A stretch of DNA of 42,175 bases from Limisphaerales bacterium (GTDB lineage: Bacteria; Verrucomicrobiota; Verrucomicrobiia; Limisphaerales; SIBE01), in contig JBGAIN010000059.1 of NCBI GenBank assembly GCA_044225505.1, positions 1 to 42,175 of the forward strand, read 5' to 3'. Below, piece by piece: positions 4,871-41,884 of the stretch. A program made the position numbers and the translations under genes. Every line of letters starts with the position of its first letter. Position 1 is the stretch's first letter. The notes below the pieces were generated by a model that was not told the DNA's origin, did no database searches, and was given only the letters and a program-made list of their open reading frames with translations.

Positions 4871-6817
<1,947 letters not shown>

Positions 6818-7975: not shown

Positions 7976-8559
7976 GCTTTCTACGCCGCATTCTGATGGC
8001 GGTGGGCGCTTTGGCCCTGCTCCTGACGACGACCCCCGTGGTGGAATGGTGGGCGCTTTGGCTGGCAGGCCCATGGGAGGCGCCGAAGGGGGAAACCCTG
8101 GTGGTGCTAGGGGCCGATTCGATGGGCGATGGCATGCTCGGGTACTCAAGCTATATCCGCTCCTACTATGCAGTGCGGGTGTGGCGTGAAGGGGGGGTGC
8201 GCGAGGTGCTCATTCTCGGGCAAGGGGTTTCCGGGCCGATGCGCGACTATCTGATCCAGCATGGGGTGCCGGCAGAGGCGGTGACGGCCGAAATGGTCTC
8301 GCGTACGACCCTCGAGAATGCCCAAGCCGCGAAGAAGCTTTTGGCAGGCCGGGCTGGACGAAGAGTATTGCTGTCGAGCGACTATCATATGCGCCGCGCG
8401 GCGGCCGTATTTCGACTACAGGGACTCGAGGTGGCGACCGTGCCTTTGCCGGACGTGATCAAACGCTCACAAGTCTGGTCTGAACGGATGGGGCTGGCCT
8501 GGATGCTGGGTTGTGAAACAGCAAAACTTGCGTGGTATCGATGGCGGGGATGGGCATGA
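7972..8559 (+). CDS. YdcF/DUF218 (ElyC/SanA-like) protein
   Basis: GTG start overlaps the upstream TGA (GTGA). Motifs LVVLG, SRTTLENA, LSSDYHMRRA. Confidence 0.85.
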   Translation: MSFLRRILMAVGALALLLTTTPVVEWWALWLAGPWEAPKGETLVVLGADSMGDGMLGYSSYIRSYYAVRVWREGGVREVLILGQGVSGPMRDYLIQHGVPAEAVTAEMVSRTTLENAQAAKKLLAGRAGRRVLLSSDYHMRRAAAVFRLQGLEVATVPLPDVIKRSQVWSERMGLAWMLGCETAKLAWYRWRGWA

Positions 8560-20426: not shown

Positions 20427-21863
20427 ATGCAAACATCGACGTTCACCCCTCCCCCGGGGAATCGGTTCGGGCCGGCCCTGGCGGCGAGTCCTGGAACTGA
20501 TCCAACCCCGACTGCGACAGGTGCTCTGCCTGCGTCACCGCAACTGGCCGCGGGAATCCTGTTTCTGATTCTCGAGCTGTTCGTCCTGCAAACCCGTTTT
20601 TTTGATTTCGTTCTCTCGGGTTTTCGCATTCCGATGCTCGTGTTTATCCTGCTGACGGTGTCCCTACTGGCCGCCCTGGGCTCTCAGACCTGGAATTTTT
20701 CGAAGCGAACAACGGTTCTGATGTTGTTGCAACTGGGCTGGATGGCCTTTGCCACGGTTTTTAGCACTTGGCGGTCCAATAGCGTGGCCGTGCTCACCGC
20801 CTATCTCTATCTCTCGATTGTAGGCGTGGCGATTATCGTCTTGATCGACACGCCACGGCGGCTGATAAGGATTTTGACTTTGTTCGGAGTTTTTTCCGCG
20901 ATCCCGGCATTCATGGGCTTCGTCTGGGGACGCTCGGACCTCCCTCGCCTACAGCTCCTGATGGGCACTTACTCAGATCCCAATATTTACGCGCTCAGCA
21001 TCGTGGCGGGCATTCCCGTCGTGTACTGGATGATGAACTCTTCCAATGTGCTGATGCGCTTAACGGCTCTTACCATGAGCTTGGCGATGTATTGGATTGT
21101 ACTGAAGACAGGCTCTCGCGGAGCTTTTATCTCGCTCACCATAGTTTTTCTGTTCGTCCTTTATCACGCGTCTCTACTGCGCAAAATGTTGATGGTGGCG
21201 GGCGTCATTATCGGGATTTTCATCGCTTCGATCACCCTGTCAACCTACTCGAAGAATCGCCTCTTTACGCTGTTTAAGTCGGATTTGAATCAAGAAGAAC
21301 TGCAGTCGATGTCCGAAATGGAGCGCAATGCCGTAAGCGGCGACGTTGGATCTTCCGAAAGCCGTTGGCAGTTGCTACTCGACAGCCTTGAGCTTACGGG
21401 CAAGCATCCCCTGGTCGGGGTTGGACCGGGCAATTTCGGCGATGCACGTTGGCAAATGCATTTGGCGCGAATTGGAAGAAACATCGCGGCTCAAACGACG
21501 CACAATACCTACACCCAATTCTCTAGCGAGGCTGGCATCATCGGCCTTTTGATCTTCCTGGCGCAGATCATCGACGCCTTCGGCAATCTCAAAGCGATAC
21601 GGAAGTGGAAAAGCGCGGATGGCTACCGACCGGCACCGACCTATCAGGCGGCGGCGCATTACCTACGCTTGTCTCTGATTAGTCTTTGCGTCGGGATGGC
21701 GTTTCTGAGCCTCGCTTACAGCGGACCGTTCTGCATTATCGTGGGACTAACGCTGGCTCTGCGAAACACGGTCGAAAAAGAGTGGATGCGTTATCGGGTA
21801 GCACAGCAGGAGACGAATCCGATGGTCCTCGCAGTGCCGGCGGGTTCTGTGGCGCGAGCTTAA
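20427..21863 (+). CDS. wzy: O-antigen ligase/polymerase family (Wzy_C) membrane protein
   Basis: RBS AGGAGAGG, many TM helices, DPNIYA, TGSRGAF, HPLVGVGPGNF, THNTYTQFSSEAGIIG. Confidence 0.8.
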   Translation: MQTSTFTPPPGNRFGPALAASPGTDPTPTATGALPASPQLAAGILFLILELFVLQTRFFDFVLSGFRIPMLVFILLTVSLLAALGSQTWNFSKRTTVLMLLQLGWMAFATVFSTWRSNSVAVLTAYLYLSIVGVAIIVLIDTPRRLIRILTLFGVFSAIPAFMGFVWGRSDLPRLQLLMGTYSDPNIYALSIVAGIPVVYWMMNSSNVLMRLTALTMSLAMYWIVLKTGSRGAFISLTIVFLFVLYHASLLRKMLMVAGVIIGIFIASITLSTYSKNRLFTLFKSDLNQEELQSMSEMERNAVSGDVGSSESRWQLLLDSLELTGKHPLVGVGPGNFGDARWQMHLARIGRNIAAQTTHNTYTQFSSEAGIIGLLIFLAQIIDAFGNLKAIRKWKSADGYRPAPTYQAAAHYLRLSLISLCVGMAFLSLAYSGPFCIIVGLTLALRNTVEKEWMRYRVAQQETNPMVLAVPAGSVARA

Positions 21864-25461: not shown

Positions 25462-26469
25462 ATGGAACGCGTCGTCGTCATCGGAGGCGCCGGTTTCATC
25501 GGCAGGCAGTTGGTGAATCAGCTCCGAAATCAGGGCAATGAAGTTGTGGTGGTGAGCCGTTCGGCCGGCCAAGGACAGCCCGTGGAGCCGGGCTTAACTT
25601 ACTACCGGGCGGATGTCGCCGATCAGGAACGCGTCGCGCTATCGATTGAAGGTGCTTCGGTGGTCTATCACTTGGCGATGGGTGGAGGATCTACCTGGGC
25701 CGACTATGTCCGTGACTTTATCGGAGGCGCGAGAAATATCGCGCGGGCCTGTCAGCGCTATGGCGTTCGTCGGCTAATTTTTACCAGTTCCATCTCGGCC
25801 CTTTATCTGGGCAAGCGCGGCAAGTTGTACGAGCGGGATGGGCCTGATCCAAAGACCGAGGAGCGGAGCTTTTACTCGCGCGGCAAGATCGAGGCGGAAA
25901 AGGCCCTGCTTGACCTGCATCGGTCGGAGAAGCTGCCGGTGGTCATTCTCCGGCCGGCGATCGTCTTGGGGCGCGGAGGGATGCTCGCCCACGGGGCGCT
26001 AGGGGAATCGGCCTCCGATACGTGTATTCTCGGCTGGGGGACCGGCGAAAATCCTCTCCCCTGTGTCTTGGTACAAGACGTAGCGCGCGCCCTGGTTCTG
26101 GCAAAAGATGCTCCCGGCGTGGAAGGTAAGTCTTTCAACCTGTCCGGCGACATTCGACCCACCGCCCGGGAATACGTCGAGCTATTGCGTCAGTACACTC
26201 GCCGTAATTTTCGCTTCTATGCGCGCAGCGTACCCGTCATGGGATTGAACGAGTGGGGACGATGGGCGATCAAGGCCGCGGTCCGCAAACCGAACAACGT
26301 CAGAGTGAGCTATCGCGACCTCAAGAGTCTGACGATGGCAGCAGATCTGGACTGTTCTGAGGCAAAAACACTTCTCGGCTGGAATCCGGAAACCGATCGA
26401 GAGGCGTTCTTGCGGGAAGCAATTGGATCTCATCTGAAGCCGTTTGCTCCCGGCGACCTTCGCGCCTAA
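25462..26469 (+). CDS. NAD-dependent epimerase/dehydratase (extended SDR)
   Basis: GGAGFIG, VYHLA, TSS, YSRGK (YxxxK), LRP. Confidence 0.88.
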   Translation: MERVVVIGGAGFIGRQLVNQLRNQGNEVVVVSRSAGQGQPVEPGLTYYRADVADQERVALSIEGASVVYHLAMGGGSTWADYVRDFIGGARNIARACQRYGVRRLIFTSSISALYLGKRGKLYERDGPDPKTEERSFYSRGKIEAEKALLDLHRSEKLPVVILRPAIVLGRGGMLAHGALGESASDTCILGWGTGENPLPCVLVQDVARALVLAKDAPGVEGKSFNLSGDIRPTAREYVELLRQYTRRNFRFYARSVPVMGLNEWGRWAIKAAVRKPNNVRVSYRDLKSLTMAADLDCSEAKTLLGWNPETDREAFLREAIGSHLKPFAPGDLRA

Positions 26470-35157: not shown

Positions 35158-36908
35158 GTGAAGGCGATGACCGTCTCGAGCCGCAGCGGTAGTGTGCAAC
35201 GCTTACGCAAGACCACCACTGCTGCCGGCTCGCGCGTTCCGTAGGCCTTCGAGCGCCAGCCCTCTTCAATCTCTGCTTCTCCCTCCACGGTCAGTGTGGC
35301 GCGGGTTCCCAACTGCACCACATCTGCCCCAACCCGGGTTACGGGCACCCCCGCATGCCAAAACTGCTCGACCTCGTGGTCGCCGGACGGTCCGTCTACT
35401 TCGTCGACCACCCGCAGCGTCTGAGCGCCCCATTGAATCCACCGGCGATGCGTGAAGCCTCGGTAGCGGCACTCGCCGCCCTCTTCACCGAGCGGTCCCA
35501 CCACCGGCCGGCCAACCCAGCCGAATGAGCCGGCGGGTTCTGCCTGATCGAATCCATCCAGCCGCACCGTATTGTGCGCCGCACTCCCCCGAAAACGGTT
35601 CCGTTGTTCCCCAACGTATTCATAGGTCCCCGGATCAATCAGCAGTTCGTCGCTGCCTACGCGCAGGTAGATACTCAGACTATCCGAATGGCTATGTCCC
35701 GCTTGATAGGGGCCAAAGCCTCCGACGTCGAAGGCCAGAAATCGCTCCCCCTCTTCGAACACCATTGCGCCATTGTGTGGAAAGAGTCTCTTTGCCGGCA
35801 CGTCCCTCGGCTTTGGCTCCAGTGTCGGCTCTCCCAGCCAGGCCGCAACCAGGGTCAGATCCTCTCCAATCCAGTCCGGCCGGCTGCAGAGCGCACCGCA
35901 CAAAGTTCGCGTCGCCCGGCCATATTGGGTATGCACACCATAGGGATGGAACAATCGTCCGCCATCATCATCCCCCAGCAGCGGGATCGATCCGGCCGAC
36001 CCGAGCATGGCATCGAGGTAGTTGCCCATCTTCTGCAGGACAGGTAGGTACGCCGCCGGGCGCCCCGCCAACACGTAGTGCAATAGAAAGAAGTCCATCG
36101 CGTACACGTGATAATAGGTGGATTGCTCGAAATGCGCACCATCCGGTAGCACTTGGCGCGACAATTCGGTTGTCACCACCCGGTGCCCCAGTTCACGCCA
36201 TCGCTCAGCGCGGGGAAAACATGGGAAGAGAACGCCCAGCGCATGCAGCGCCACGGCTTCCCCCAGCAAATGAGTGTTCGGCGAAAAGTAATAGGAAAGG
36301 TTATATTCCAGATGCCAGCCGTGCCGCGCCAGCTCCTGGAGAAACTCCGCCGGCATGCGGTCCCCTACCAGATGATAGGTCCAGACCCAGGAAAGTGAAC
36401 GAAAAGCCACCTCCAGCGCGCTGCACCAGTTGATGCCGTGCTGGAATGGATTCTCCTGAATCCAGCTTTCCCATTGGCTGACGAGCTCGGAGAGGTACAA
36501 GCTCTGCCCGGTGCGCCGATACGCTTGTGCCAGCACCACCCAATGCTGATGACGATTCAGTTCCCAAATGACCTTGTGGTCACCGACTTGCGTAACGTCC
36601 AGGTACGGGATTCGACGAAAGTAGATCGGCCCGGTTTCTATGCCCCGCTGATAGTCCCGGCGCCAACGAATCTGAGGCCCGGTCTCAAGTTGAATCCCGA
36701 GTAGCGGAAAACGATGCGCCACAATCTGATCCGCCAACCGCTCGATGTCGGGCGCGATCGCCGCCTGCGGATCCGGAAGCAGTGGAAGGGGTGCGGGAGC
36801 CGTAAAGGTCCGCGACGGCGGCCTTTTCGCCAGCCAGAGATTCATCGCCTCTTGCCGGAGGCGAAAGGCGATTTCTCCCGGCGAGCGAGCAAACTTCTTC
36901 AGACTCAC
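35154..36908 (-). CDS. Heparinase II/III family (polysaccharide lyase-like) protein
   Basis: GTG 36908 overlaps the upstream TGA. Motifs KVIWELNRHQ, NTHLLGEA, DGAHFEQSTYYH, GHSHSD, LIDPGTYEY, FRGSAAHNTV. Confidence 0.88.
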   Translation of the reverse strand: MSLKKFARSPGEIAFRLRQEAMNLWLAKRPPSRTFTAPAPLPLLPDPQAAIAPDIERLADQIVAHRFPLLGIQLETGPQIRWRRDYQRGIETGPIYFRRIPYLDVTQVGDHKVIWELNRHQHWVVLAQAYRRTGQSLYLSELVSQWESWIQENPFQHGINWCSALEVAFRSLSWVWTYHLVGDRMPAEFLQELARHGWHLEYNLSYYFSPNTHLLGEAVALHALGVLFPCFPRAERWRELGHRVVTTELSRQVLPDGAHFEQSTYYHVYAMDFFLLHYVLAGRPAAYLPVLQKMGNYLDAMLGSAGSIPLLGDDDGGRLFHPYGVHTQYGRATRTLCGALCSRPDWIGEDLTLVAAWLGEPTLEPKPRDVPAKRLFPHNGAMVFEEGERFLAFDVGGFGPYQAGHSHSDSLSIYLRVGSDELLIDPGTYEYVGEQRNRFRGSAAHNTVRLDGFDQAEPAGSFGWVGRPVVGPLGEEGGECRYRGFTHRRWIQWGAQTLRVVDEVDGPSGDHEVEQFWHAGVPVTRVGADVVQLGTRATLTVEGEAEIEEGWRSKAYGTREPAAVVVLRKRCTLPLRLETVIAFT

Positions 36909-38251: not shown

Positions 38252-39208
38252 CTAGATCACGATCCGCTCAACTTCGTCGAGGGAGATTTCCTCATCGCGC
38301 CGGTCGTACAGACCCGTCGTTCGCGAGGACTCGTGCCCCGCCATCTGCTGTGCCACTTCCACCCGCCCTCCGTTCTTCAGGTAGGCCGTAATCCCTGTCG
38401 CCCGGAAGCTGTGGTTACAAAGATGGCTCGCGAGTCCGGCGGCGGCGGCCCGTCGCTTCACCATGCGTAATACATCAGTACGATGCAGCGGGAACGTCGT
38501 TACGCCCCCACGGCGGTCACTGGTACGGAAGAGCGGGAGCTTCCCTGCTCCTCGCAAGCCAGCTGCCGCCAAGTATGCGTCGAGATATTCCTCGGCCTTA
38601 TGGTGCGCGTACACCTCGTTGTATTTGCCTCCCTTCTCGAGAAACCGTAGCTTCCAGCGCTTGCCCGCAGGGAAATAGTCGTCTACGCGGAGCCCCACCA
38701 CTGCGGACACACGGGCGAAAGTGTAGATCATTACGCCGATCAAGGCGCGATCGCGTAAACCAATCAGCGTATCCGCCTCAATTGAATCCAAGAGCTGCCG
38801 CGCCTCTTCAGCCGACAGCACAGGAGTCTTGCCGCGGCGAATGACATACTTAGGCCCACGCACCGAACTCGCCGGATTCACCTTCAGCACACCCCCGGTG
38901 ACAAGGTAGTCGAACAGAGTTCGAATTGCGGCCAGGTGCTGCTTAATTGTCGGCTTCGAGAGGCCGCGCTCGGCGGCGAGAGATTCGATGTAGCTGGCGA
39001 TAGCGACCGGATGCAGCCGTTCTAGACTGAAGCCGCGGGCGTCGCACCAGGTGAAAAACGACACCAGGGCACGTGCGTAAGCAGCTCTTGTGTTGGGATT
39101 TCGAATGTTAGCGGCGAAAAACTCCAGGAACCGATAAGAGGCTCGATTCCCTGCCCGGCGGATCAGAGGCGGAAGCTGGGTTGTTGGAGAGATGATCAGA
39201 TCATCCAC
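38252..39208 (-). CDS. Tyrosine recombinase (XerC/D / integrase family); start GTG 39208 preferred, longest ORF begins at ATG 39220
   Basis: SAM-like N-domain (NTRAAY, TIKQHLAAIR); catalytic residues in ARV, EKGGK, HSFR, AGH and TTGLY. Confidence 0.93.
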   Translation of the reverse strand: MDDLIISPTTQLPPLIRRAGNRASYRFLEFFAANIRNPNTRAAYARALVSFFTWCDARGFSLERLHPVAIASYIESLAAERGLSKPTIKQHLAAIRTLFDYLVTGGVLKVNPASSVRGPKYVIRRGKTPVLSAEEARQLLDSIEADTLIGLRDRALIGVMIYTFARVSAVVGLRVDDYFPAGKRWKLRFLEKGGKYNEVYAHHKAEEYLDAYLAAAGLRGAGKLPLFRTSDRRGGVTTFPLHRTDVLRMVKRRAAAAGLASHLCNHSFRATGITAYLKNGGRVEVAQQMAGHESSRTTGLYDRRDEEISLDEVERIVI

Positions 39209-39211
39209 AGA

Positions 39212-39239
39212 ACGTATCATAAAGGACGTTATGATACAG
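39212..39239. other. dif-like tyrosine recombinase core site ACGTATCATAA-AGGACG-TTATGATACAG
   Basis: Perfect 9-bp inverted arms (GTATCATAA/TTATGATAC) around a 6-bp spacer. Shares CATAA-N6-TTATG with E. coli dif and abuts the recombinase gene. Confidence 0.75.
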
Positions 39240-39245
39240 TGTCAA
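39216..39245 (-). promoter_or_regulatory. sigma70-type promoter of the recombinase, TTGACA-N18-TATGAT
   Basis: -35 at 39245-39240 and -10 at 39221-39216, followed 7 nt later by GTG 39208 (leaderless geometry). Confidence 0.65.
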
Positions 39246-39250
39246 TGCAG

Positions 39251-39280
39251 TTGATGCGCGATCGCGCAATAACGTATGGT
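39251..39280 (+). promoter_or_regulatory. Putative promoter TTGATG-N18-TATGGT containing the 14-bp palindrome TGCGCGATCGCGCA (39255-39268)
   Basis: Read directly from the sequence; sits back-to-back with the recombinase promoter. Confidence 0.5.
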
Positions 39281-39299
39281 AGGAAGAGAGACTTCCCGA

Positions 39300-39824
39300 T
39301 TGCCTCGCCCCATCGATTGGTTTCATCGACTTCCCCACATTCTCGACACCCTCGACGCCCCCGGTCACCCCGCGCTCCTCACTAGGCAAGCCATTCAGAC
39401 CCTCTTCGGGGTCGAACGCCGAACCGCCCATTCCCTTCTCCGCCGCTTCGGCGCCGAGCGTCTCGGCAACGCTCTCGTCGTCGACCGCGATCGCCTCGCC
39501 CAGGCCCTGCGCCAGCTCGCCTCGCAAGACGACGTCACCCGTGAACACCGTCGCCATGAACGAGTGCGGGAAACCCTGGCCGAGCGTCGTTCCACCCTGC
39601 GCCTCGCCCGCATCGCCCTCCCCGACGCACCGGCCGTTGAAGCCCTGGCCGATCTGCCACCCTCCATCGAACTCGTCCCGGGTCAACTTCGCATCCGGTT
39701 CGCCGGCGCCGTCGACCTCCTGTCTCAACTGCTCACCCTCTCCCGCGCCATTGGCGAAGACTTCGAACGCTTTGAGGCGCTGTTAAATCAGGACCCCCTC
39801 GCAAGTAACAAGACCCCAAAATAG
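39300..39824 (+). CDS. Hypothetical protein with an HTH-like N-terminus, divergent from the recombinase (start TTG 39300 or ATG 39276)
   Basis: LTRQAIQTLFGVERRTAHSLLRRFG resembles an HTH, followed by an Arg-rich helix; strong coding bias. Confidence 0.65.
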   Translation: MPRPIDWFHRLPHILDTLDAPGHPALLTRQAIQTLFGVERRTAHSLLRRFGAERLGNALVVDRDRLAQALRQLASQDDVTREHRRHERVRETLAERRSTLRLARIALPDAPAVEALADLPPSIELVPGQLRIRFAGAVDLLSQLLTLSRAIGEDFERFEALLNQDPLASNKTPK

Positions 39825-39867
39825 AGCGTCATTCTACAGAATCCTACTATGAGTAGGGTTCCGTTTC

Positions 39868-39896
39868 TTGACACCAACCCTACCCAACTTTAGAAT
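39868..39896 (+). promoter_or_regulatory. sigma70 promoter TTGACA-N17-TAGAAT for the HTH-parA operon
   Basis: Near-consensus hexamers with 17-bp spacing; ATG lies 8 nt after the -10 with no RBS. Confidence 0.75.
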
Positions 39897-39904
39897 CGAG
39901 CAAG

Positions 39905-40090
39905 ATGGTCCGCCAATACCTCACCACTCGTCAGGTGGCTCAGGAGCTCGGCGTGTCGCTCAATACGGTCTACCGTTGGCTCAAAGCCGAGCGCCTCCCC
40001 GAGCCTCTCCGTGATCCTGACAATAACTACCGGCTCTGGACAGTCGAAGACATCGCCCGCATCAAGCTCACCGCCACGGAGCCCGCATGA
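39905..40090 (+). CDS. Small MerR/excisionase-like helix-turn-helix DNA-binding protein
   Basis: YLTTRQVAQELGVSLNTVYRW...PEPLRDPDNNYRLWT. Confidence 0.88.
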   Translation: MVRQYLTTRQVAQELGVSLNTVYRWLKAERLPEPLRDPDNNYRLWTVEDIARIKLTATEPA

Positions 40091-40872
40091 TCCGCCTCGT
40101 CGTCGCCAATCAGCGCGGAGGCGTTGGAAAAACCACCGCCGCCGTCAATTACGCTTGGTATCTGGCCCAGCGCGGACGCCGCACCCTACTGATCGACACC
40201 GACAGTCAGGGCTCGATCGGCGTTATGCTCAACCTCAAGCCGAAGCACTATTTCAGTCATTTCCTGGTCAACAAGTTCCACCTGGACGAGTGCACGGTCC
40301 AGGCTGGGGAGAATTTCCACGTTCTTTGCGGCAACAAAGAAACGGTGCAGGCCGAGAGCGCCTTGGCCGGCGCGGTAGTGCGCGAGCTGACCCTCAAAGT
40401 GCTGCTCGAGCCCTACGAAAAGCAGTACGACGCGGTGATCATCGACGTCTCCCCGTCGATCAACCTGCTCCAGACCTGCGCCATGGTTTACGCCCGTAAC
40501 GTATTGATTCCAGTCAACATGGACCTGTTGAGTCTCAACGGAGCCAATGCCGCTTACGACATGATCCGTCTCCTGAACGACTTGATCCGGGCACAGATCA
40601 CCGCCGTCGGTCTGATGCCCTGCCAAGTCGATCAGCGCCTCTCCGTCACCGCCCTGGTTCAGCAAGGCCTCGAAAAGATGTCGGAAATGTTCCAGATTCC
40701 GATCCTCCCGGCCATTCGCACTGACCAGAACGTCAACAAGGCCTTCCGCGCCCGCCGGCCGCTGCTTGAATACGATCCCGGCTCGAAGGCCGCCCAGGAC
40801 TATCTACTGGCTTTTGAACGAATTACCGCCGCCATGGACGACCATGCCGAAACCCAAAAAGCTTCCGCCTGA
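40087..40872 (+). CDS. parA: ParA/Soj family ATPase
   Basis: ANQRGGVGKTT, LLIDTDSQG, YDAVIIDVSPS, IR, AAQDY; ATGA overlap with the HTH gene. Confidence 0.88.
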   Translation: MIRLVVANQRGGVGKTTAAVNYAWYLAQRGRRTLLIDTDSQGSIGVMLNLKPKHYFSHFLVNKFHLDECTVQAGENFHVLCGNKETVQAESALAGAVVRELTLKVLLEPYEKQYDAVIIDVSPSINLLQTCAMVYARNVLIPVNMDLLSLNGANAAYDMIRLLNDLIRAQITAVGLMPCQVDQRLSVTALVQQGLEKMSEMFQIPILPAIRTDQNVNKAFRARRPLLEYDPGSKAAQDYLLAFERITAAMDDHAETQKASA

Positions 40873-41884
40873 ACCGTTTGACGTCGGCGACTTTCTCCGG
40901 CCCACCGACACCGATCTGCGCAGCGCGCTCAGCACGCTGCTGCACGGCGGCCAGGAAGAACCACCAGCCCCAGTCGAGATAGCGGCCCCTGGCAAGCCAG
41001 AGGCCGGTCCTAAATTAGAGCTCCGGACTCAAACTACGGCCGCCGTAAAGGCGCCTCCCCAGCCTGTATCACGAGCCGACTCTAAACTAGCCGCGGCTCC
41101 TAATCCACACCCCGCTCCTGATTTAACTGCCCCAACTAAATCACGAGCGGCCAGCGCCTCAATCTCGCCAGCTACCTTAGGGACCCCGCTCACTACAACA
41201 CCCCCTCCTGCCTTAGCTCCGGAGCCTAAGAAGCGGCAGTTTGCTGTACGCCCCGCCTTGCTCGTCGAAGACGGTCATTCGCGGGCCGAGCAGCAGGTCT
41301 ACGCGCGCCTGTGGGACAACGCCACACCACACGATGACGCCTCCCGCCTGATCACGCTCGGCTTTGCGTCCATGGGCAAGCTCACCGGTCTGTCCGAGAG
41401 CAACGCCCGCATTAACCTCCGCTCTCTCATTCAGAAGCTCGCTGTCGAAGAACACACCACCTACGACTGCGCCGCCAGCCAAGGCCGCACCTATCGCGTC
41501 TTTGAACCCGCCGAAGTCCTGCGCCGCCGCCACGCCGCCGGCTTACGCTGGGTGATGCGACGCACGCTGGCCGTCGTTTTCGTCGATCCCGAATCCAAGC
41601 TCCCCTTGTTTCATAAGGCCGGCCCCGGTTTACCCTCCGGTCCTAACTTAGTTCCGCCAGTTTTATTGACCCAGGCCATTCGCGGTCATCTCCAGCAGTA
41701 CGGCCCGACGGACCCCGCCACCGTCCAGCGCTTTCTCGCCGCCTGCCAGCACGCCAACCCACAGGCGACTCCTGAGCAAATCGCCGCCGCCATTCACGAT
41801 CAAGCGCTTCTCACCGCCGGCATGCCCGCCGCCGAGCGCCTCGCCTTTCTGCTCGACACTGTCCCCGGACGTCTCGAGCACTAG
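40844..41884 (+). CDS. Hypothetical protein with a Pro/Ala-rich linker and a winged-HTH-like domain (possible replication initiator or centromere-binding protein)
   Basis: ATG 40844 overlaps the end of parA. HSRAEQQVYARLW...LGFASMGKLTGLSESNARINLRSLIQKLAVEE...GRTYRVF fits a wHTH pattern. Confidence 0.6.
   Translation: MPKPKKLPPEPFDVGDFLRPTDTDLRSALSTLLHGGQEEPPAPVEIAAPGKPEAGPKLELRTQTTAAVKAPPQPVSRADSKLAAAPNPHPAPDLTAPTKSRAASASISPATLGTPLTTTPPPALAPEPKKRQFAVRPALLVEDGHSRAEQQVYARLWDNATPHDDASRLITLGFASMGKLTGLSESNARINLRSLIQKLAVEEHTTYDCAASQGRTYRVFEPAEVLRRRHAAGLRWVMRRTLAVVFVDPESKLPLFHKAGPGLPSGPNLVPPVLLTQAIRGHLQQYGPTDPATVQRFLAACQHANPQATPEQIAAAIHDQALLTAGMPAAERLAFLLDTVPGRLEH
41006..41239. repeat. Degenerate tandem array of about 13 x 18-bp units (core CCTAA-N-TTAG) inside the wHTH gene
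   Basis: Units include ggtcctaaattagagctc, gactctaaactagccgcg, gctcctaatccacacccc, gctcctgatttaactgcc, ccaactaaatcacgagcg, ccagctaccttagggacc and cctcctgccttagctccg. Another copy, ggtcctaacttagttccg, is at 41639-41656. Confidence 0.6.

Follow-up and report, generated by a model that had tools for sequence, protein, structure and literature searches.

Type I (Walker-type) partition systems combine a small Soj-like ParA with a centromere-binding protein encoded downstream, as in ParF-ParG of TP228 or delta-omega of pSM19035. Multimers are resolved by recombinases encoded beside their own site, such as Cre/loxP of P1, ResD/rfsF of F and XerS/difSL of streptococci, in which difSL adjoins xerS; ATAA-N6-TTAT forms the core of dif sites. 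The maintenance modules of PAPI-1/ICEclc/SPI-7-type islands comprise soj, dnaB and a XerC/D-like integrase, and in PAPI-1/ICEclc-type islands Soj is said to stabilise the excised circle. An origin inside the initiator's own gene is exemplified by lambda O/ori-lambda. The same arrangement is described for pLS32/RepA_N-type plasmids (PMC4758243).

Here, we describe a cassette at 38252-41884 of a 42,175-nucleotide window (the whole stretch of DNA analysed; Limisphaerales bacterium GCA_044225505.1, contig JBGAIN010000059.1, 1-42,175), which looks like a plasmid- or ICE-type maintenance module. We see about an even chance that it combines a recombination unit with a partition operon and serves as the core that stabilises a family of mobile elements, replicons or islands, found mainly in Bryobacter-like (soil) Acidobacteria. 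The mobile family to which it would belong is little known.

Results

A compact five-gene cassette recurs in other genomes

Five intact ORFs encode a tyrosine recombinase, a 182-aa protein, a 61-aa HTH protein, ParA and a 346-aa protein (Table 1). Three sets of cis-sites, namely a dif-like core, an operator at a promoter and copies of a 21-bp palindrome, each exceeded chance, in agreement with the original prediction of five DNA-transaction genes and three cis-site sets within 3.6 kb. The cassette adjoins a polysaccharide locus on its left. A Pfam scan of 27 + 2 window ORFs left of the cassette returned only polysaccharide-synthesis or other enzyme families, and none of phage, conjugation or transposase type, as had also been predicted. 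By 4-mer composition, the contig is the second most atypical of 192, and the cassette's nearest relatives come from assemblies whose housekeeping XerD is just 41% identical to that of the bin. The contig is a compositional outlier, foreign to the relatives of its bin.

Table 1. Genes and cis-sites of the cassette and its right flank.
Feature	Position	Strand	Description
Tyrosine recombinase (322 aa)	38252-39220	-	Xer/phage-integrase family; Pfam Phage_integrase 2.3e-17 and SAM-like N-domain
Core-type (dif-like) site GTATCATAAAGGACGTTATGATAC	39214-39237	.	Perfect 9-nt inverted arms, 6-nt spacer AGGACG
Recombinase promoter-like site TTGACA-18-TATGAT (11/12)	39216-39245	-	Hexamers bracket core site
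GC palindrome GCGCGATCGCGC then half-site AATAACGTA	39256-39276	.	Abuts ATG of 182-aa gene
182-aa accessory protein	39276-39824	+	Divergent from recombinase in every case
Degenerate 21-bp copy	39777-39797	.	PWM 14.1 bits; within 3' end of 182-aa gene
Operator and promoter of HTH-ParA-346aa operon	39850-39896	+	Inverted repeat flanks -35 TTGACA; -10 TAGAAT, spacer 17
Operator arms GAGTAGGGTT and AACCCTACCCA	in 39850-39896		Either side of -35
61-aa excisionase/MerR-type HTH	39905-40090	+	HTH_17 8.6e-9, MerR, TIGR01764 excise 5.8e-7
ParA/Soj-class ATPase (261 aa)	40087-40872	+	AAA_31 4.8e-36
346-aa modular DNA-binding protein	40844-41884	+	Alternative start 40766 gives 372 aa
21-bp copy, left half CCGGTCCTAA	41004-41024	.	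PWM 10.9 bits; first linker-coding region
Two overlapping degenerate 21-bp copies	41112-41150	.	PWM 10.9 and 8.7 bits; first linker-coding region
Best window 21-bp copy	41637-41657	.	19/21 to consensus, PWM 23.2 bits; second linker, encodes SGPNLVP
fliW	start 41957, runs off contig		Right flank of cassette

In 31/36 related loci, the gene immediately before the 346-aa gene is ParA; four of the remaining five have no room for it, and the fifth (L037) has room and no ParA. A small HTH gene precedes ParA in 24 of the 25 loci that offer enough space. Searches located the 182-aa gene in 17 related loci and the recombinase in 14 by tblastn, plus one by Pfam, and where present the two always form a divergent pair. 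The complete five-gene order, with ugd and/or fliW flanks and all ORFs intact, recurs in L002-L005 and L008-L010, from Bryobacter-type assemblies. The genes thus co-occur in other genomes, on which the prediction of a DNA-maintenance cassette had staked itself.

Among the relatives, L013 carries the T4SS genes CagX, TrbL and TraG, and PemK toxins lie near the module in L015 and G041. The module sits inside polysaccharide loci in the window, L007, L021-L023, L026, L027 and G041:C13. Its distribution is patchy (module in 1/41 relatives and 1/401 genomes of a phylum sample; 182-aa gene in 1/151 of an order sample). A search of 72,556 sequenced plasmids gave no match to the 346-aa protein at E ≤ 1e-3 and no close ParA at E ≤ 1e-30, and IMG/VR likewise lacked the 346-aa protein; no bona fide extrachromosomal carrier is therefore known.

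The ParA operon encodes a modular winged-helix protein

The operon promoter, TTGACA-17-TAGAAT, scores 11/12 and is one of two promoter-like sites found, compared with 0.7 expected from shuffles. Its -35 is bracketed by GTAGGGTT-N15-AACCCTAC at 39853-39883, the sole such pair genome-wide, and 18 of 21 related upstream regions contain a clear inverted repeat. The 61-aa HTH protein, whose stop codon overlaps the ParA start (ATGA), is 58-88% identical across loci (dN/dS 0.07-0.29); its PADLOC match, mad1 (2.2e-14), is that of a generic small HTH. ParA matched the PHROG ParA-like family (2e-38), with 8ray ParA and Soj as the closest solved chains. Its Walker A motif, NQRGGVGKTT, is invariant and has Arg at the place of the ParA/MinD signature Lys; in a 19-sequence alignment with a mean column identity of 85%, this R10 was likewise invariant. 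ParA dN/dS was 0.03-0.04 against three type-A loci, at a saturated dS of 0.9-1.7, and 0.084-0.086 against L021 and L028.

The 346-aa gene overlaps the ParA stop by 29 nt and shows a dN/dS of 0.20-0.29. By alignment and structural model, its product begins with a conserved N-terminal peptide (residues ~10-35), in which F17, L18, D24 and A28 hardly vary. There follow a Pro-rich, disordered linker of variable length (~40-130) and a winged helix (130-253), with invariant N187, N191 and R193 in the recognition-helix region. The C-terminal part is a bundle of four helices (271-346), joined to the winged helix by a short linker. No family match was found in Pfam, NCBIfam, PHROG or PADLOC, and no ParB, RHH or other centromere-binding signature was detectable. 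All 107 relatives are unnamed or 'hypothetical', and the model gave only generic winged-helix structure matches (Z ≤ 7.4). The original prediction of 'no ParB' holds in that a ParB-family domain was not detected; it is nevertheless probably wrong, because in relatives the 346-aa gene holds 21-bp arrays, and the gene lies beside ParA, in the position and with the architecture of a centromere-binding partner. The protein is likely to be the partner of ParA, and would then be a ParB analogue of a new family; failing that, it would be an initiator whose iterons lie within its gene.

A PWM for the 21-bp quasi-palindrome had 10 matches in the 42-kb window, five of them inside 39777-41657, one strong and four degenerate. 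Over 17 loci, 70 matches fell in 41 kb of module DNA versus 7 in 185 kb outside, and we take the repeats as real because of this enrichment in relatives; the internal repeats proposed for the window, weak there, are thereby borne out. At the 39777-39797 copy, type-A loci keep the motif TTAAAT..GGA.CCCC, and the L004 counterpart spans the stop codon of the 182-aa gene. The copies at 41004-41024 and 41637 share a 15-nt direct repeat, and those at 41112-41150 have an inverted 18-nt match to 39776-39793. Arrays in relatives sit in the linker-coding parts of the 346-aa gene, where the copies in L007 and L028 are spaced at exactly 18 or 24 bp, and perfect or near-perfect copies occur in non-coding DNA (L028 at 6930; the HTH-ParA gap of L021, L023 and L026). 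At P-x-L positions of 346-aa genes, the Leu codon is TTA in 42/78 cases, compared with 15/472 Leu codons in ParA, and the Pro codon is CCT in 50/78, compared with 120/454 elsewhere. The 21-bp sites are signals at the DNA level.

A different role for these arrays, which we regard as rather unlikely, is that of iterons bound by the 346-aa protein as a replication initiator, with the origin in its own gene. The module would then be a minimal replicon core of Rep, ParA and resolvase, in which the ParA partner is the 61-aa HTH or the 346-aa protein does both jobs. In addition to the regular 18/24-bp arrays, this is suggested by weak family leads: Atlas clusters with HTH_36, RP-C and DnaD_N lie at 0.92-0.93 to the 346-aa protein (sharing only 129-142 of 256 features), Rep3_N appears in 4/26 family members (all below threshold; best E 0.11), and Foldseek rows include N-domains of staphylococcal Rep proteins, alongside many winged helices of generic type. 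However, every family lead is below significance. In six loci the module is immediately preceded by genes for a DnaB-like helicase and a Toprim/Zn-ribbon primase, and all six encode a short-form 346-aa protein lacking the C-terminal helical domain. Neither gene was found in the six loci that encode the long form and extend at least 4 kb upstream (window, L002, L004, L010, L011, L028), which fits a C-terminal domain recruiting host replication proteins. This correlation may reflect one clade, and the upstream 6.5 kb of L018, also a short-form locus, contain no helicase. Moreover, the sites are palindromic, the usual form of dimer-bound operators and centromeres and unlike asymmetric direct iterons; the 346-aa gene takes the ParB position, and in the window the sites are degenerate and the gene contains no AT-rich stretch.

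The recombinase and its site lie at a strain junction

The recombinase translation shows the catalytic residues R..K..HxxR..H..Y, matches a PHROG integrase (4e-39) and has E. coli XerD as the closest solved chain (6.6e-16). The predicted 'resolvase' is thus a site-specific recombinase, better named a tyrosine recombinase of the Xer/integrase family. Its best NCBIfam match is XerD, at about 124.5-124.7 bits (cut-off 329.6); a role as the genome's main Xer is not supported, as XerC/D candidates elsewhere in the genome reach 306 and 276 bits. The core site overlaps the annotated start codon of the recombinase. As predicted, it is dif-like, a perfect 9-6-9 palindrome, and GTATCATAAAGGACGTTATGATAC is single in the 9.04-Mb assembly at a tolerance of up to 3 mismatches; ATAA-N6-TTAT palindromes with at most one arm mismatch number three genome-wide. 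The pattern arm-ATAA / A[AG]GACG / TTAT-arm occurs once in each of the 11 loci having it, always between the recombinase and 182-aa genes (11/11).

The 182-aa protein has 856 cluster representatives as relatives at E ≤ 1e-3 and no family match in Pfam, NCBIfam, PHROG or PADLOC. In its model (pLDDT 90), a winged helix at the N-terminus is followed by a long helix and then by a small domain at the C-terminus. Residues 10-84 match Rex (Z 6.1) and residues 31-84 match mycobacteriophage Pukovnik Xis, BldC and GIsul2 excisionase (Z 5.0-5.1, rmsd 2.1-2.3), scores that are low and generic.

DNA common to type-A loci and near-identical strains begins at the palindrome at 39256-39276, a 21-nt string identical in L003. 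From 39253 rightwards, and not to its left, the window is matched by contigs of runs X16 and X2. Contigs from two runs other than the window's are 99.2% and 96.8% identical over this part and extend 3.9 and 11.6 kb to the left with non-matching DNA. Identity is lost abruptly at 39250-39253, 16 bp from the core site, in strains otherwise 97-99% identical; a third strain variant has an inverted core site just before 39250. The recombinase is 53-54% identical to type-B loci and 36-39% to the otherwise closest type-A loci, and together with the core-site orientation it is of type B, whereas every other cassette gene is of type A. Recombinase and site have been replaced by a xenologue. Type-A loci share the ugd gene next to the recombinase but have a different recombinase there, so the exchange may have covered no more than about 1 kb.

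Such a junction and xenologous exchange could also mark the integration/excision end of a genomic island, formed by recombinase, site and 182-aa protein, with the ParA operon merely stabilising the excised circle; the island would be the polysaccharide locus on the left, or the ParA module and the DNA to its right. The Xis-type resemblance of the 182-aa N-domain (Z about 5), the embedding of the module in polysaccharide loci and the foreign composition of the contig are consistent with this explanation. We consider it improbable, as the assembly holds no second core site within 3 mismatches and the lone window copy of the arm-plus-spacer 10-mer, at 21155, is near chance (13 genome-wide). The 42-kb window contains no tRNA, no direct-repeat boundary was found for the putative island, and the swapped unit may be as small as noted above.

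Neither decay nor a chromosomal terminus accounts well for the cassette

The host genome contains no replication genes accompanying the cassette, which is a reduced five-gene form without replication genes of its own. Together with the degenerate 21-bp sites of the window and the patchy distribution, this would suit an integrated plasmid or prophage that is now decaying and has no present function. We judge that very improbable, given ORFs intact in the window and seven related loci, ParA dN/dS of 0.03-0.04 at a dS of about 1 or more, and the conserved operator and promoter.

GC skew in the window drops from +0.2/+0.3 to -0.24, a G-to-C switch with an amplitude ~6x the typical contig mean. As this swing is too large compared with the genome's contig average of |0.034|, it is not replication skew; one other contig also switches, and no consistent switch was seen across 15 related loci. 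A chromosomal dimer-resolution site with a dedicated single Xer at the terminus and a terminus-segregation ParA system (the latter among the options of the original prediction) is therefore hardly credible despite the single-copy ATAA-N6-TTAT core adjoining its recombinase, as it must also contend with the higher-scoring XerC/D candidates, with absence of the module from 40 relatives, 400 phylum-sample and 150 order-sample genomes, and with the helicase, primase and T4SS genes of relatives.

Discussion

Our preferred reading, a recombination unit and a partition operon at the core of a mobile replicon or island, drew on gene linkage, selection on ParA, intact ORFs, site enrichment, the architecture of the 346-aa protein and the operator/promoter, as well as on helicase/primase/T4SS genes in relatives, patchy distribution and recombination at the junction. 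In this arrangement, the Xer-like recombinase would act on the 24-bp core that its own promoter encloses between -35 and -10, with the 182-aa winged-helix protein probably serving as an architectural or directionality factor, as its fixed position and weak Xis-like fold suggest. The unit would resolve multimers, or integrate or exchange DNA, at the junction. The partition operon would be driven by one strong promoter wrapped by the conserved palindromic operator, which the 61-aa HTH most likely binds, resulting in autoregulation. ParA would be the nucleoid-bound ATPase, the 346-aa winged helix is predicted to bind the 21-bp palindromes in its own linker codons and nearby non-coding DNA, and its conserved N-terminal peptide would engage ParA.

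Several observations point away from this reading. The weak leads of the 346-aa protein are to replication initiators, the 21-bp sites of the window are few and degenerate, and ParA lacks the signature lysine used by canonical ParA dimers. The 346-aa protein has no centromere-binding family signature, and there is no known extrachromosomal carrier. The cassette may still belong to a chromid or megaplasmid, or be a captured plasmid core.

Comparison with known systems

Like repABC, to which the original prediction had likened it, the cassette packs a partition ATPase, DNA-binding proteins and cis-sites into a short operon. In contrast to repABC, ParA scores 57 bits against a RepA cut-off of 348, the HTH is a separate 61-aa protein rather than fused, and RepB/ParB and RepC (RP-C) families are unmatched.

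As in lambda O and pLS32/RepA_N-type plasmids, repeats lie in the variable middle of a DNA-binding protein's own gene (binding being predicted here), an AT-rich region is not obvious, and the repeats have a conserved DNA-binding domain on one side and a conserved C-terminal domain on the other. In contrast to both, the cassette repeats are palindromes found to either side of the winged helix, and ParA precedes the gene in the same operon. No significant RepA_N or Rep_3 match was obtained for the 346-aa protein.

Six relatives resemble PAPI-1/ICEclc/SPI-7 islands in that one block of accessory DNA encodes ParA, a helicase of DnaB type and an integrase of Xer type. Unlike in those islands, where the integrase lies at the opposite end of 100 kb of island DNA, it adjoins the par operon, and a ParB-like nuclease gene is absent; the SPI-7-type model, with a cut-off of 655 bits, gives the relatives' helicase a score of 83.

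As in Cre/loxP, ResD/rfsF and XerS/difSL, one tyrosine recombinase abuts one inverted-arm site with a 6-8-nt spacer, single-copy in the assembly. The cassette differs in that its recombinase belongs by sequence to none of XerS, XerC or XerD, the promoter of the recombinase encloses the site, the recombinase has a dedicated winged-helix accessory gene divergent from it, and the junction shows DNA exchange between strains.

Type I partition differs from the cassette in the partner, which here is of an undescribed winged-helix family with long disordered linkers and neither RHH nor ParB/HTH; in sites within the partner's own coding sequence; in a separate 61-aa HTH gene before ParA; and in Arg for the signature Lys. 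The likeness to systems such as ParF-ParG and delta-omega lies in a small ParA without fused HTH, a partner gene directly downstream and overlapping, repeated palindromes nearby, an operator-wrapped promoter and a partner with a flexible N-terminal tail.

A five-gene cassette beside a polysaccharide-synthesis locus

The assembly comprises 9.04 Mb in 342 contigs (95% complete, 4.7% contaminated), and the window is the entire contig C129 (42,175 bp). A Pfam scan of 27 ORFs plus two more assigned most of it to polysaccharide synthesis, with families for glycosyltransferases, Wzy, flippase, MBOAT, AlgX, ugd, heparinase-like and other enzymes. The five DNA-transaction genes of the original prediction were all found intact in the flagged 3.6 kb, each as the only copy in the assembly. 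As had also been claimed, no phage, conjugation or transposase families were detected among the 27 + 2 scanned ORFs; the window likewise contained no tRNA.

Features of the cassette and its surroundings in the window
Feature	Position	Strand	Remarks
Polysaccharide-synthesis locus	1-38191		
Tyrosine recombinase	38252-39220	-	Intact ORF
Core site (dif-like)	39214-39237		9-6-9, perfect arms
182-aa ORF	39276-39824	+	Intact ORF, divergent from recombinase
61-aa excisionase/MerR-type HTH	39905-40090	+	Stop overlaps ParA start
ParA, 261 aa	40087-40872	+	Intact ORF
346-aa ORF	40844-41884	+	Start as in public predictions (P0001); 29-nt overlap with ParA stop
21-bp palindrome, good copy	41637		19/21
21-bp palindrome, degenerate copies	39777, 41004, 41112, 41130		
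fliW	from 41957		Leaves contig end

Related loci occur in two arrangements

Related loci were drawn from two sources: six from species-representative genomes, every one a MAG labelled Bryobacter, Bryobacteraceae or Bryobacterales, and thirty from metagenome contigs. In 31 of these 36, the gene immediately before the 346-aa gene was ParA. Four others had no room for it, and one (L037), whose match is distant, had room and no ParA. A small HTH gene preceded ParA in 24 of 25 loci with room (exception L024). The 182-aa gene was found in 17 loci and the recombinase in 14 by tblastn plus one more by Pfam; wherever both were seen they formed a divergent pair. The order of all five genes, whose conservation the original prediction had asked to be checked, recurs in L002-L005 and L008-L010. 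Together with the window these make up type A: recombinase (-), 182-aa gene (+), HTH, ParA and 346-aa gene, flanked on the left by ugd and heparinase where the contig extends that far, and on the right by fliW and then, where seen, csrA, a ~910-aa flagellin, a TPR gene and fliD. In L002 (10011-12743), L003 (6123-8861) and L004 (10042-12801), these giant flagellins downstream of fliW-csrA have normal N- and C-terminal flagellin domains around a ~700-aa insert, and the blocks, which continue with the TPR protein and fliD, sit within polysaccharide loci.

Type B (L007, L021, L022, L023, L026, L027) is embedded in polysaccharide genes and carries three genes directly upstream of HTH-ParA-346aa: one for a ~620-aa protein whose C-terminus is an XRE HTH, one for a DnaB-like helicase and one for a primase of the Zn-ribbon/Toprim kind. 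This trio had no counterpart in the window's genome, where only the chromosomal DnaB matched, at 30%. Downstream, four of the six loci carry the 182aa(-)/recombinase(+) pair; L027 lacks both genes, and in L007 the recombinase lies ~6 kb upstream. With this pair as reference, the HTH-ParA-346aa block stands inverted, in place, in one type compared with the other, and no inverted repeats that would explain the inversion were found. CagX, TrbL and TraG genes adjoin the module in L013. Two unrelated contexts (L015, 5341-5703; L046 on contig C13 of assembly G041, 4964-5380) have PemK/MazF-type toxin genes no more than a few kb from the module. Neither the 346-aa protein nor a close ParA matched any of the 72,556 plasmids in PLSDB, the 346-aa protein had no match in IMG/VR, and a full-text literature search returned no title or abstract describing this module.

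Palindrome arrays fill the linker codons of the 346-aa gene

A search at E<=1e-3 found 107 relatives of the 346-aa protein; none has a Pfam domain, and each is either unnamed or "hypothetical". From the family alignment and a structural model (pLDDT 76), the protein has five parts. The N-terminal peptide is conserved (consensus FDVxDFLRPTDxDLxSALNSLL); a Pro-rich, disordered linker, which varies greatly in length, joins it to a winged helix whose recognition region, LSESNARINLRSL, is invariant; and a second, short linker follows. The fifth part, a C-terminal domain of four helices, is confined to long forms. Searches for similar folds with the model gave only generic winged-helix and helical-bundle matches. 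No cassette protein matched a ParB or RHH family, and no ParB or RP-C Pfam match appeared even at E<=1 over 26 members of the 346-aa family; the sole RP-C lead was one Atlas cluster in which 19% of members carry RP-C.

A 21-bp quasi-palindrome, CCGGTCTTAACTTAAGACCGG, accounts for the internal repeats that had been noticed in the window. They are present, with five of the ten hits of its scoring matrix (PWM) in the entire window falling in the cassette, but they are weak in the window taken alone. In relatives, the stretches packed with the palindrome are precisely the two that encode linkers, and its copies there often recur with an exact period of 18 or 24 bp. Such arrays lie inside the gene in L007 (copies at 8146, 8164, 8182 and 8200), L028 (five at 18 bp and four at 24 bp), L030, L011 and others. 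Across 17 non-redundant loci, we counted 70 hits in 41 kb of module DNA against 7 in 185 kb of flanks. Copies also occur outside the gene: a perfect non-coding one at L028:6930, others upstream of the HTH gene (L006/L011, L013, L014/L015) and between the HTH and ParA genes (L021, L023, L026).

Read in frame, the sites encode G-P-N-L-x-P. Leu is TTA at 42 of 78 P-x-L positions compared with 15 of 472 Leu codons in ParA, and Pro is CCT at 50 of 78 P-x-L positions compared with 120 of 454 elsewhere. Together, the rare codons, dyad symmetry and non-coding copies show that the constraint acts on the DNA. Judged from these sequences, the disordered linker amounts to an array of putative binding sites that is translated. 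Two other good matches lie inside polysaccharide genes far from the cassette (25588-25608, 23.2 bits; 36679-36699, 18.7 bits), and isolated copies are seen in ugd of L004 and L010 and, in L007, L022 and L027, at 3-4 kb upstream of the module. All these may be scattered binding sites or chance.

An HTH-ParA-346aa operon with an unusual ParA

The operon has a promoter-like TTGACA-17-TAGAAT (11/12), whose -35 is bracketed by an inverted repeat, GAGTAGGGTT ... AACCCTACCCA, the operator. No other instance of the pair GTAGGGTT-N15-AACCCTAC exists in the genome. Upstream of the HTH gene in L030 and L033, the operator arms are two direct copies of AACCCTACTCA, not an inverted pair. Alone among the cassette proteins, the 61-aa HTH had a PADLOC match (mad1). 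As the NCBIfam MAD1 model gave it 19 bits against a cut-off of 80, we regarded it as a generic HTH and rejected the idea of a defence system.

ParA is a P-loop ATPase of the ParA/MinD fold (Pfam AAA_31, 4.8e-36, plus CbiA and ParA matches), and its nearest solved chains are ParA and Soj; the ParA_partition model matched at 1.9e-21, under its 180-bit cut-off. ParA/Soj ATPases carry a deviant Walker A motif, KGGxGK[ST], with a signature lysine. In the cassette ParA the motif reads NQRGGVGKTT, an Arg replacing the signature lysine in all 19 orthologues. Identity of ParA is 76-95% across loci (mean column identity 85% over the 19 orthologues) and that of its cassette partners drops to 35-60%. The repA/repC-like module that had been suggested did not survive comparison with repABC: the RepA model TIGR03453 scored 57.4 bits on ParA against a cut-off of 348.45 and covered the ATPase core only, the HTH is a separate ORF, and ParB and RP-C were without a match.

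The core site marks an exchange junction

The predicted dif-like site could be substantiated: the core site GTATCATAAAGGACGTTATGATAC has perfect 9-nt inverted arms around the 6-nt spacer AGGACG and is unique in the assembly, no second site being present within three mismatches. The whole 9 Mb holds just three ATAA-N6-TTAT palindromes of similar quality. An 11/12 promoter-like site on the recombinase strand has its -35 and -10 on either side of the core site, which also contains the annotated recombinase ATG. Eleven loci contained the arm-ATAA / A[AG]GACG / TTAT-arm pattern; each had exactly one instance, always in the recombinase/182-aa intergenic region. A 10-nt arm-plus-spacer match, ATAAAGGACG, lies 18 kb away inside the Wzy-like gene (21155-21164, -). 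Its orientation is opposite to that of the core site and, as the genome has 13 copies, it may be due to chance.

The recombinase scored 124.7 bits with the XerD model (cut-off 329.6) and 114.3 with XerC (335.15), and two better XerC/D candidates (306 and 276 bits) are encoded elsewhere in the genome. An integron platform, which comprises an IntI-type integrase with the extra domain, an attI site and a cassette array, was not supported: integron integrase models gave 44 and 22 bits (cut-offs 265 and 435), and no attC-like repeats were found in the window. For the 182-aa protein, a confident model (pLDDT 90) has an N-terminal winged helix weakly resembling Rex, Pukovnik Xis, BldC and the GIsul2 excisionase (Z 5-6), and its family comprises 856 cluster representatives. 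For both the 182-aa and the 346-aa protein, PDB-sequence profile searches and Foldseek at E<=0.001 gave no match, and VIA gave generic winged-helix or helical ones (Z<=7.4). The fixed position of the 182-aa protein suggests an architectural or directionality factor.

In type-A loci the core site is inverted relative to the window and type B. A half-site, AATAACGTA, adjoins the start of the 182-aa gene. The window has the type-B orientation, and its recombinase is 53-54% identical to type-B and 36-39% to type-A recombinases. Its 182-aa protein, HTH, ParA, 346-aa protein, ugd and fliW are all nearest type A. By these comparisons, the window is a mosaic of a type-B recombinase and site with otherwise type-A genes. 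From the GC palindrome at 39256 onward, 21 nt are identical to L003.

Population data from sequencing runs, an independent line of evidence, point the same way. In run X16, a contig of 7.9 kb aligns with the window at 99.2% identity (24 differences), starting at 39253 exactly and reaching the window's end; in run X2, a contig of 14.2 kb matches 39253-41799 with 82 differences (96.8%). To the left of 39253 they continue for 3.9 and 11.6 kb, respectively, without a match to the window. A variant contig from run X1 carries an inverted core site of the type-A kind just before 39250. Window stretches without cover in runs X16, X2 and X5 are no evidence of absence. As very close strains diverge abruptly 13-16 bp from the core site, the junction is a recent exchange point.

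The contig is atypical of its genome

Among 41 relatives, two same-genus and ten same-family genomes included, only the genome itself yielded the 346-aa gene. A phylum sample of 401 genomes gave one carrier of that gene, and an order sample of 151 gave one carrier of the 182-aa gene. Compared with its counterparts in assemblies G001-G003, the XerD-like protein of the bin shows 72-74% identity; with the best matches in G041 and G043, both of which have the type-A locus and a ParA at 93-95%, it shows 41%. For the heparinase gene next to the cassette, G043 had a match (62%) and G001-G003 had none. A second fliW-flagellin locus in the bin (contig C219) is 29% identical, and no continuation of the window's fliW-csrA-flagellin block was found in the bin. 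By tetranucleotide PCA, C129 is the second most atypical of 192 contigs >=15 kb, and its GC content is above the 95th percentile. This composition, and the fact that its genes are nearest to Bryobacter-type assemblies far from the bin by the XerD-like protein, suggest that C129 may be horizontally acquired, on a separate replicon, or mis-binned.

A candidate two-unit maintenance module

The reading we favour, at about even chances, is a maintenance module of two units. In the first, the recombinase would act at the core site, aided by the 182-aa protein, to resolve multimers or to drive exchange at the junction; because the site lies inside the recombinase promoter, this unit would autoregulate. 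The second would be a partition operon, autoregulated at its palindromic operator, probably by the 61-aa HTH, in which the 346-aa protein would load on the palindrome arrays and engage ParA via its N-terminal peptide. Complex prediction for a ParA dimer with ATP and residues 1-45 of the 346-aa protein gave a median of 0.28 against a mark of 0.32 (runs 0.28/0.41/0.23), a result that weighs neither way on binding.

Alternatively, the 346-aa protein could be a replication initiator with iterons in its own gene, which we consider possible but rather unlikely. Lambda O is an initiator with iterons in its own gene. The same design is described for pLS32-type replicons (PMC4758243). In favour of the initiator, the C-terminal domain and the element-encoded helicase/primase are distributed in complementary fashion, and there are sub-significant leads to HTH_36, RP-C, DnaD_N and Rep3_N. 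RepA_N gave no match, and Rep3_N matches were sub-threshold only (4 of 26 family members, best E 0.11). In relatives, the most AT-rich 40-mers adjoin the second array, but the sites themselves are AT-rich; no AT-rich unwinding element was found in the window's 346-aa gene. The partition and initiator readings are not mutually exclusive. A broader and more speculative proposal, to which we assign a low probability, joins them: the 346-aa protein would be a bifunctional origin/centromere-binding hub whose site array is translated as its own disordered linkers (GPNL repeats held to rare TTA/CCT codons) and, with the Arg-ParA clade and a swappable recombinase-site unit, would form the minimal maintenance core of undescribed large replicons or islands that carry and exchange polysaccharide/flagellin loci among distant Bryobacterales.

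That the cassette is the end of an island is less well supported, and we find it doubtful. Still less well supported, and very improbable, is a dead remnant. ParA has a dN/dS of 0.03-0.04 at dS 0.9-1.7 against three type-A loci and of 0.084-0.086 against L021 and L028; against the same three loci, values are 0.07-0.29 for the HTH and 0.20-0.29 for the 346-aa gene. These low ratios indicate working genes, not debris.

A chromosomal dif/terminus role, the least supported, is scarcely credible. GC skew in the window goes from +0.14 to +0.31 over 1-14 kb to -0.10 to -0.24 over 35-42 kb, a switch ~6 times the typical contig skew (contig means average |0.034|), and in G041:C13 a 30-kb stretch of polysaccharide genes has values of -0.27 to -0.42 (-0.34 overall). 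This strong local skew is independent of gene strand in both. Fifteen related loci showed no consistent switch, and the window's assembly is fragmented. The skew lends a terminus little support, the swing being far above contig means and related loci sharing no pattern; with the better XerC/D candidates elsewhere, the idea was dropped.

Significance and comparison with known systems

Acidobacteria dominate many soils, and how they maintain and exchange accessory DNA is almost wholly unknown. The cassette, in our preferred reading a two-unit maintenance module, offers two annotation-free families (at least 107 relatives for the 346-aa protein, 856 cluster representatives for the 182-aa protein), a ParA clade under very strong constraint whose Walker A is unusual, and a clear case of putative DNA-binding sites constraining the codons of their binder's own disordered linker. 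If the junction swaps polysaccharide/flagellin loci between lineages, it bears on surface-antigen diversification in soil bacteria. The cassette could also supply stability and recombination modules as genetic-tool parts for a phylum without them.

With repABC, the cassette shares neither an HTH-fused RepA nor RepB (ParB) nor RepC, and the DnaB-like helicase of its relatives does not belong to the SPI-7-type helicases. Iteron-like arrays inside a gene, as in RepA_N/Rep_3 initiators, are present in related loci; by sequence, the 346-aa protein belongs to neither family. The cassette resembles XerC/XerD-dif in its single inverted-arm site with a 6-nt spacer, but its recombinase falls short of the equivalog scores. 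With ParABS it has in common repeated, here predicted, sites near or in the operon, but in place of a ParB-family or RHH partner there is the 346-aa protein with only a generic winged helix. Overall, the kind is already known from the par and multimer-resolution/integration modules of plasmids and ICEs. Its new features are two protein families that lack annotation, a ParA clade with Arg in place of Lys, the way the operator is built, arrays of sites set in the linker codons of the partner, and a setting in polysaccharide/flagellin loci that recurs and has a hot exchange junction.
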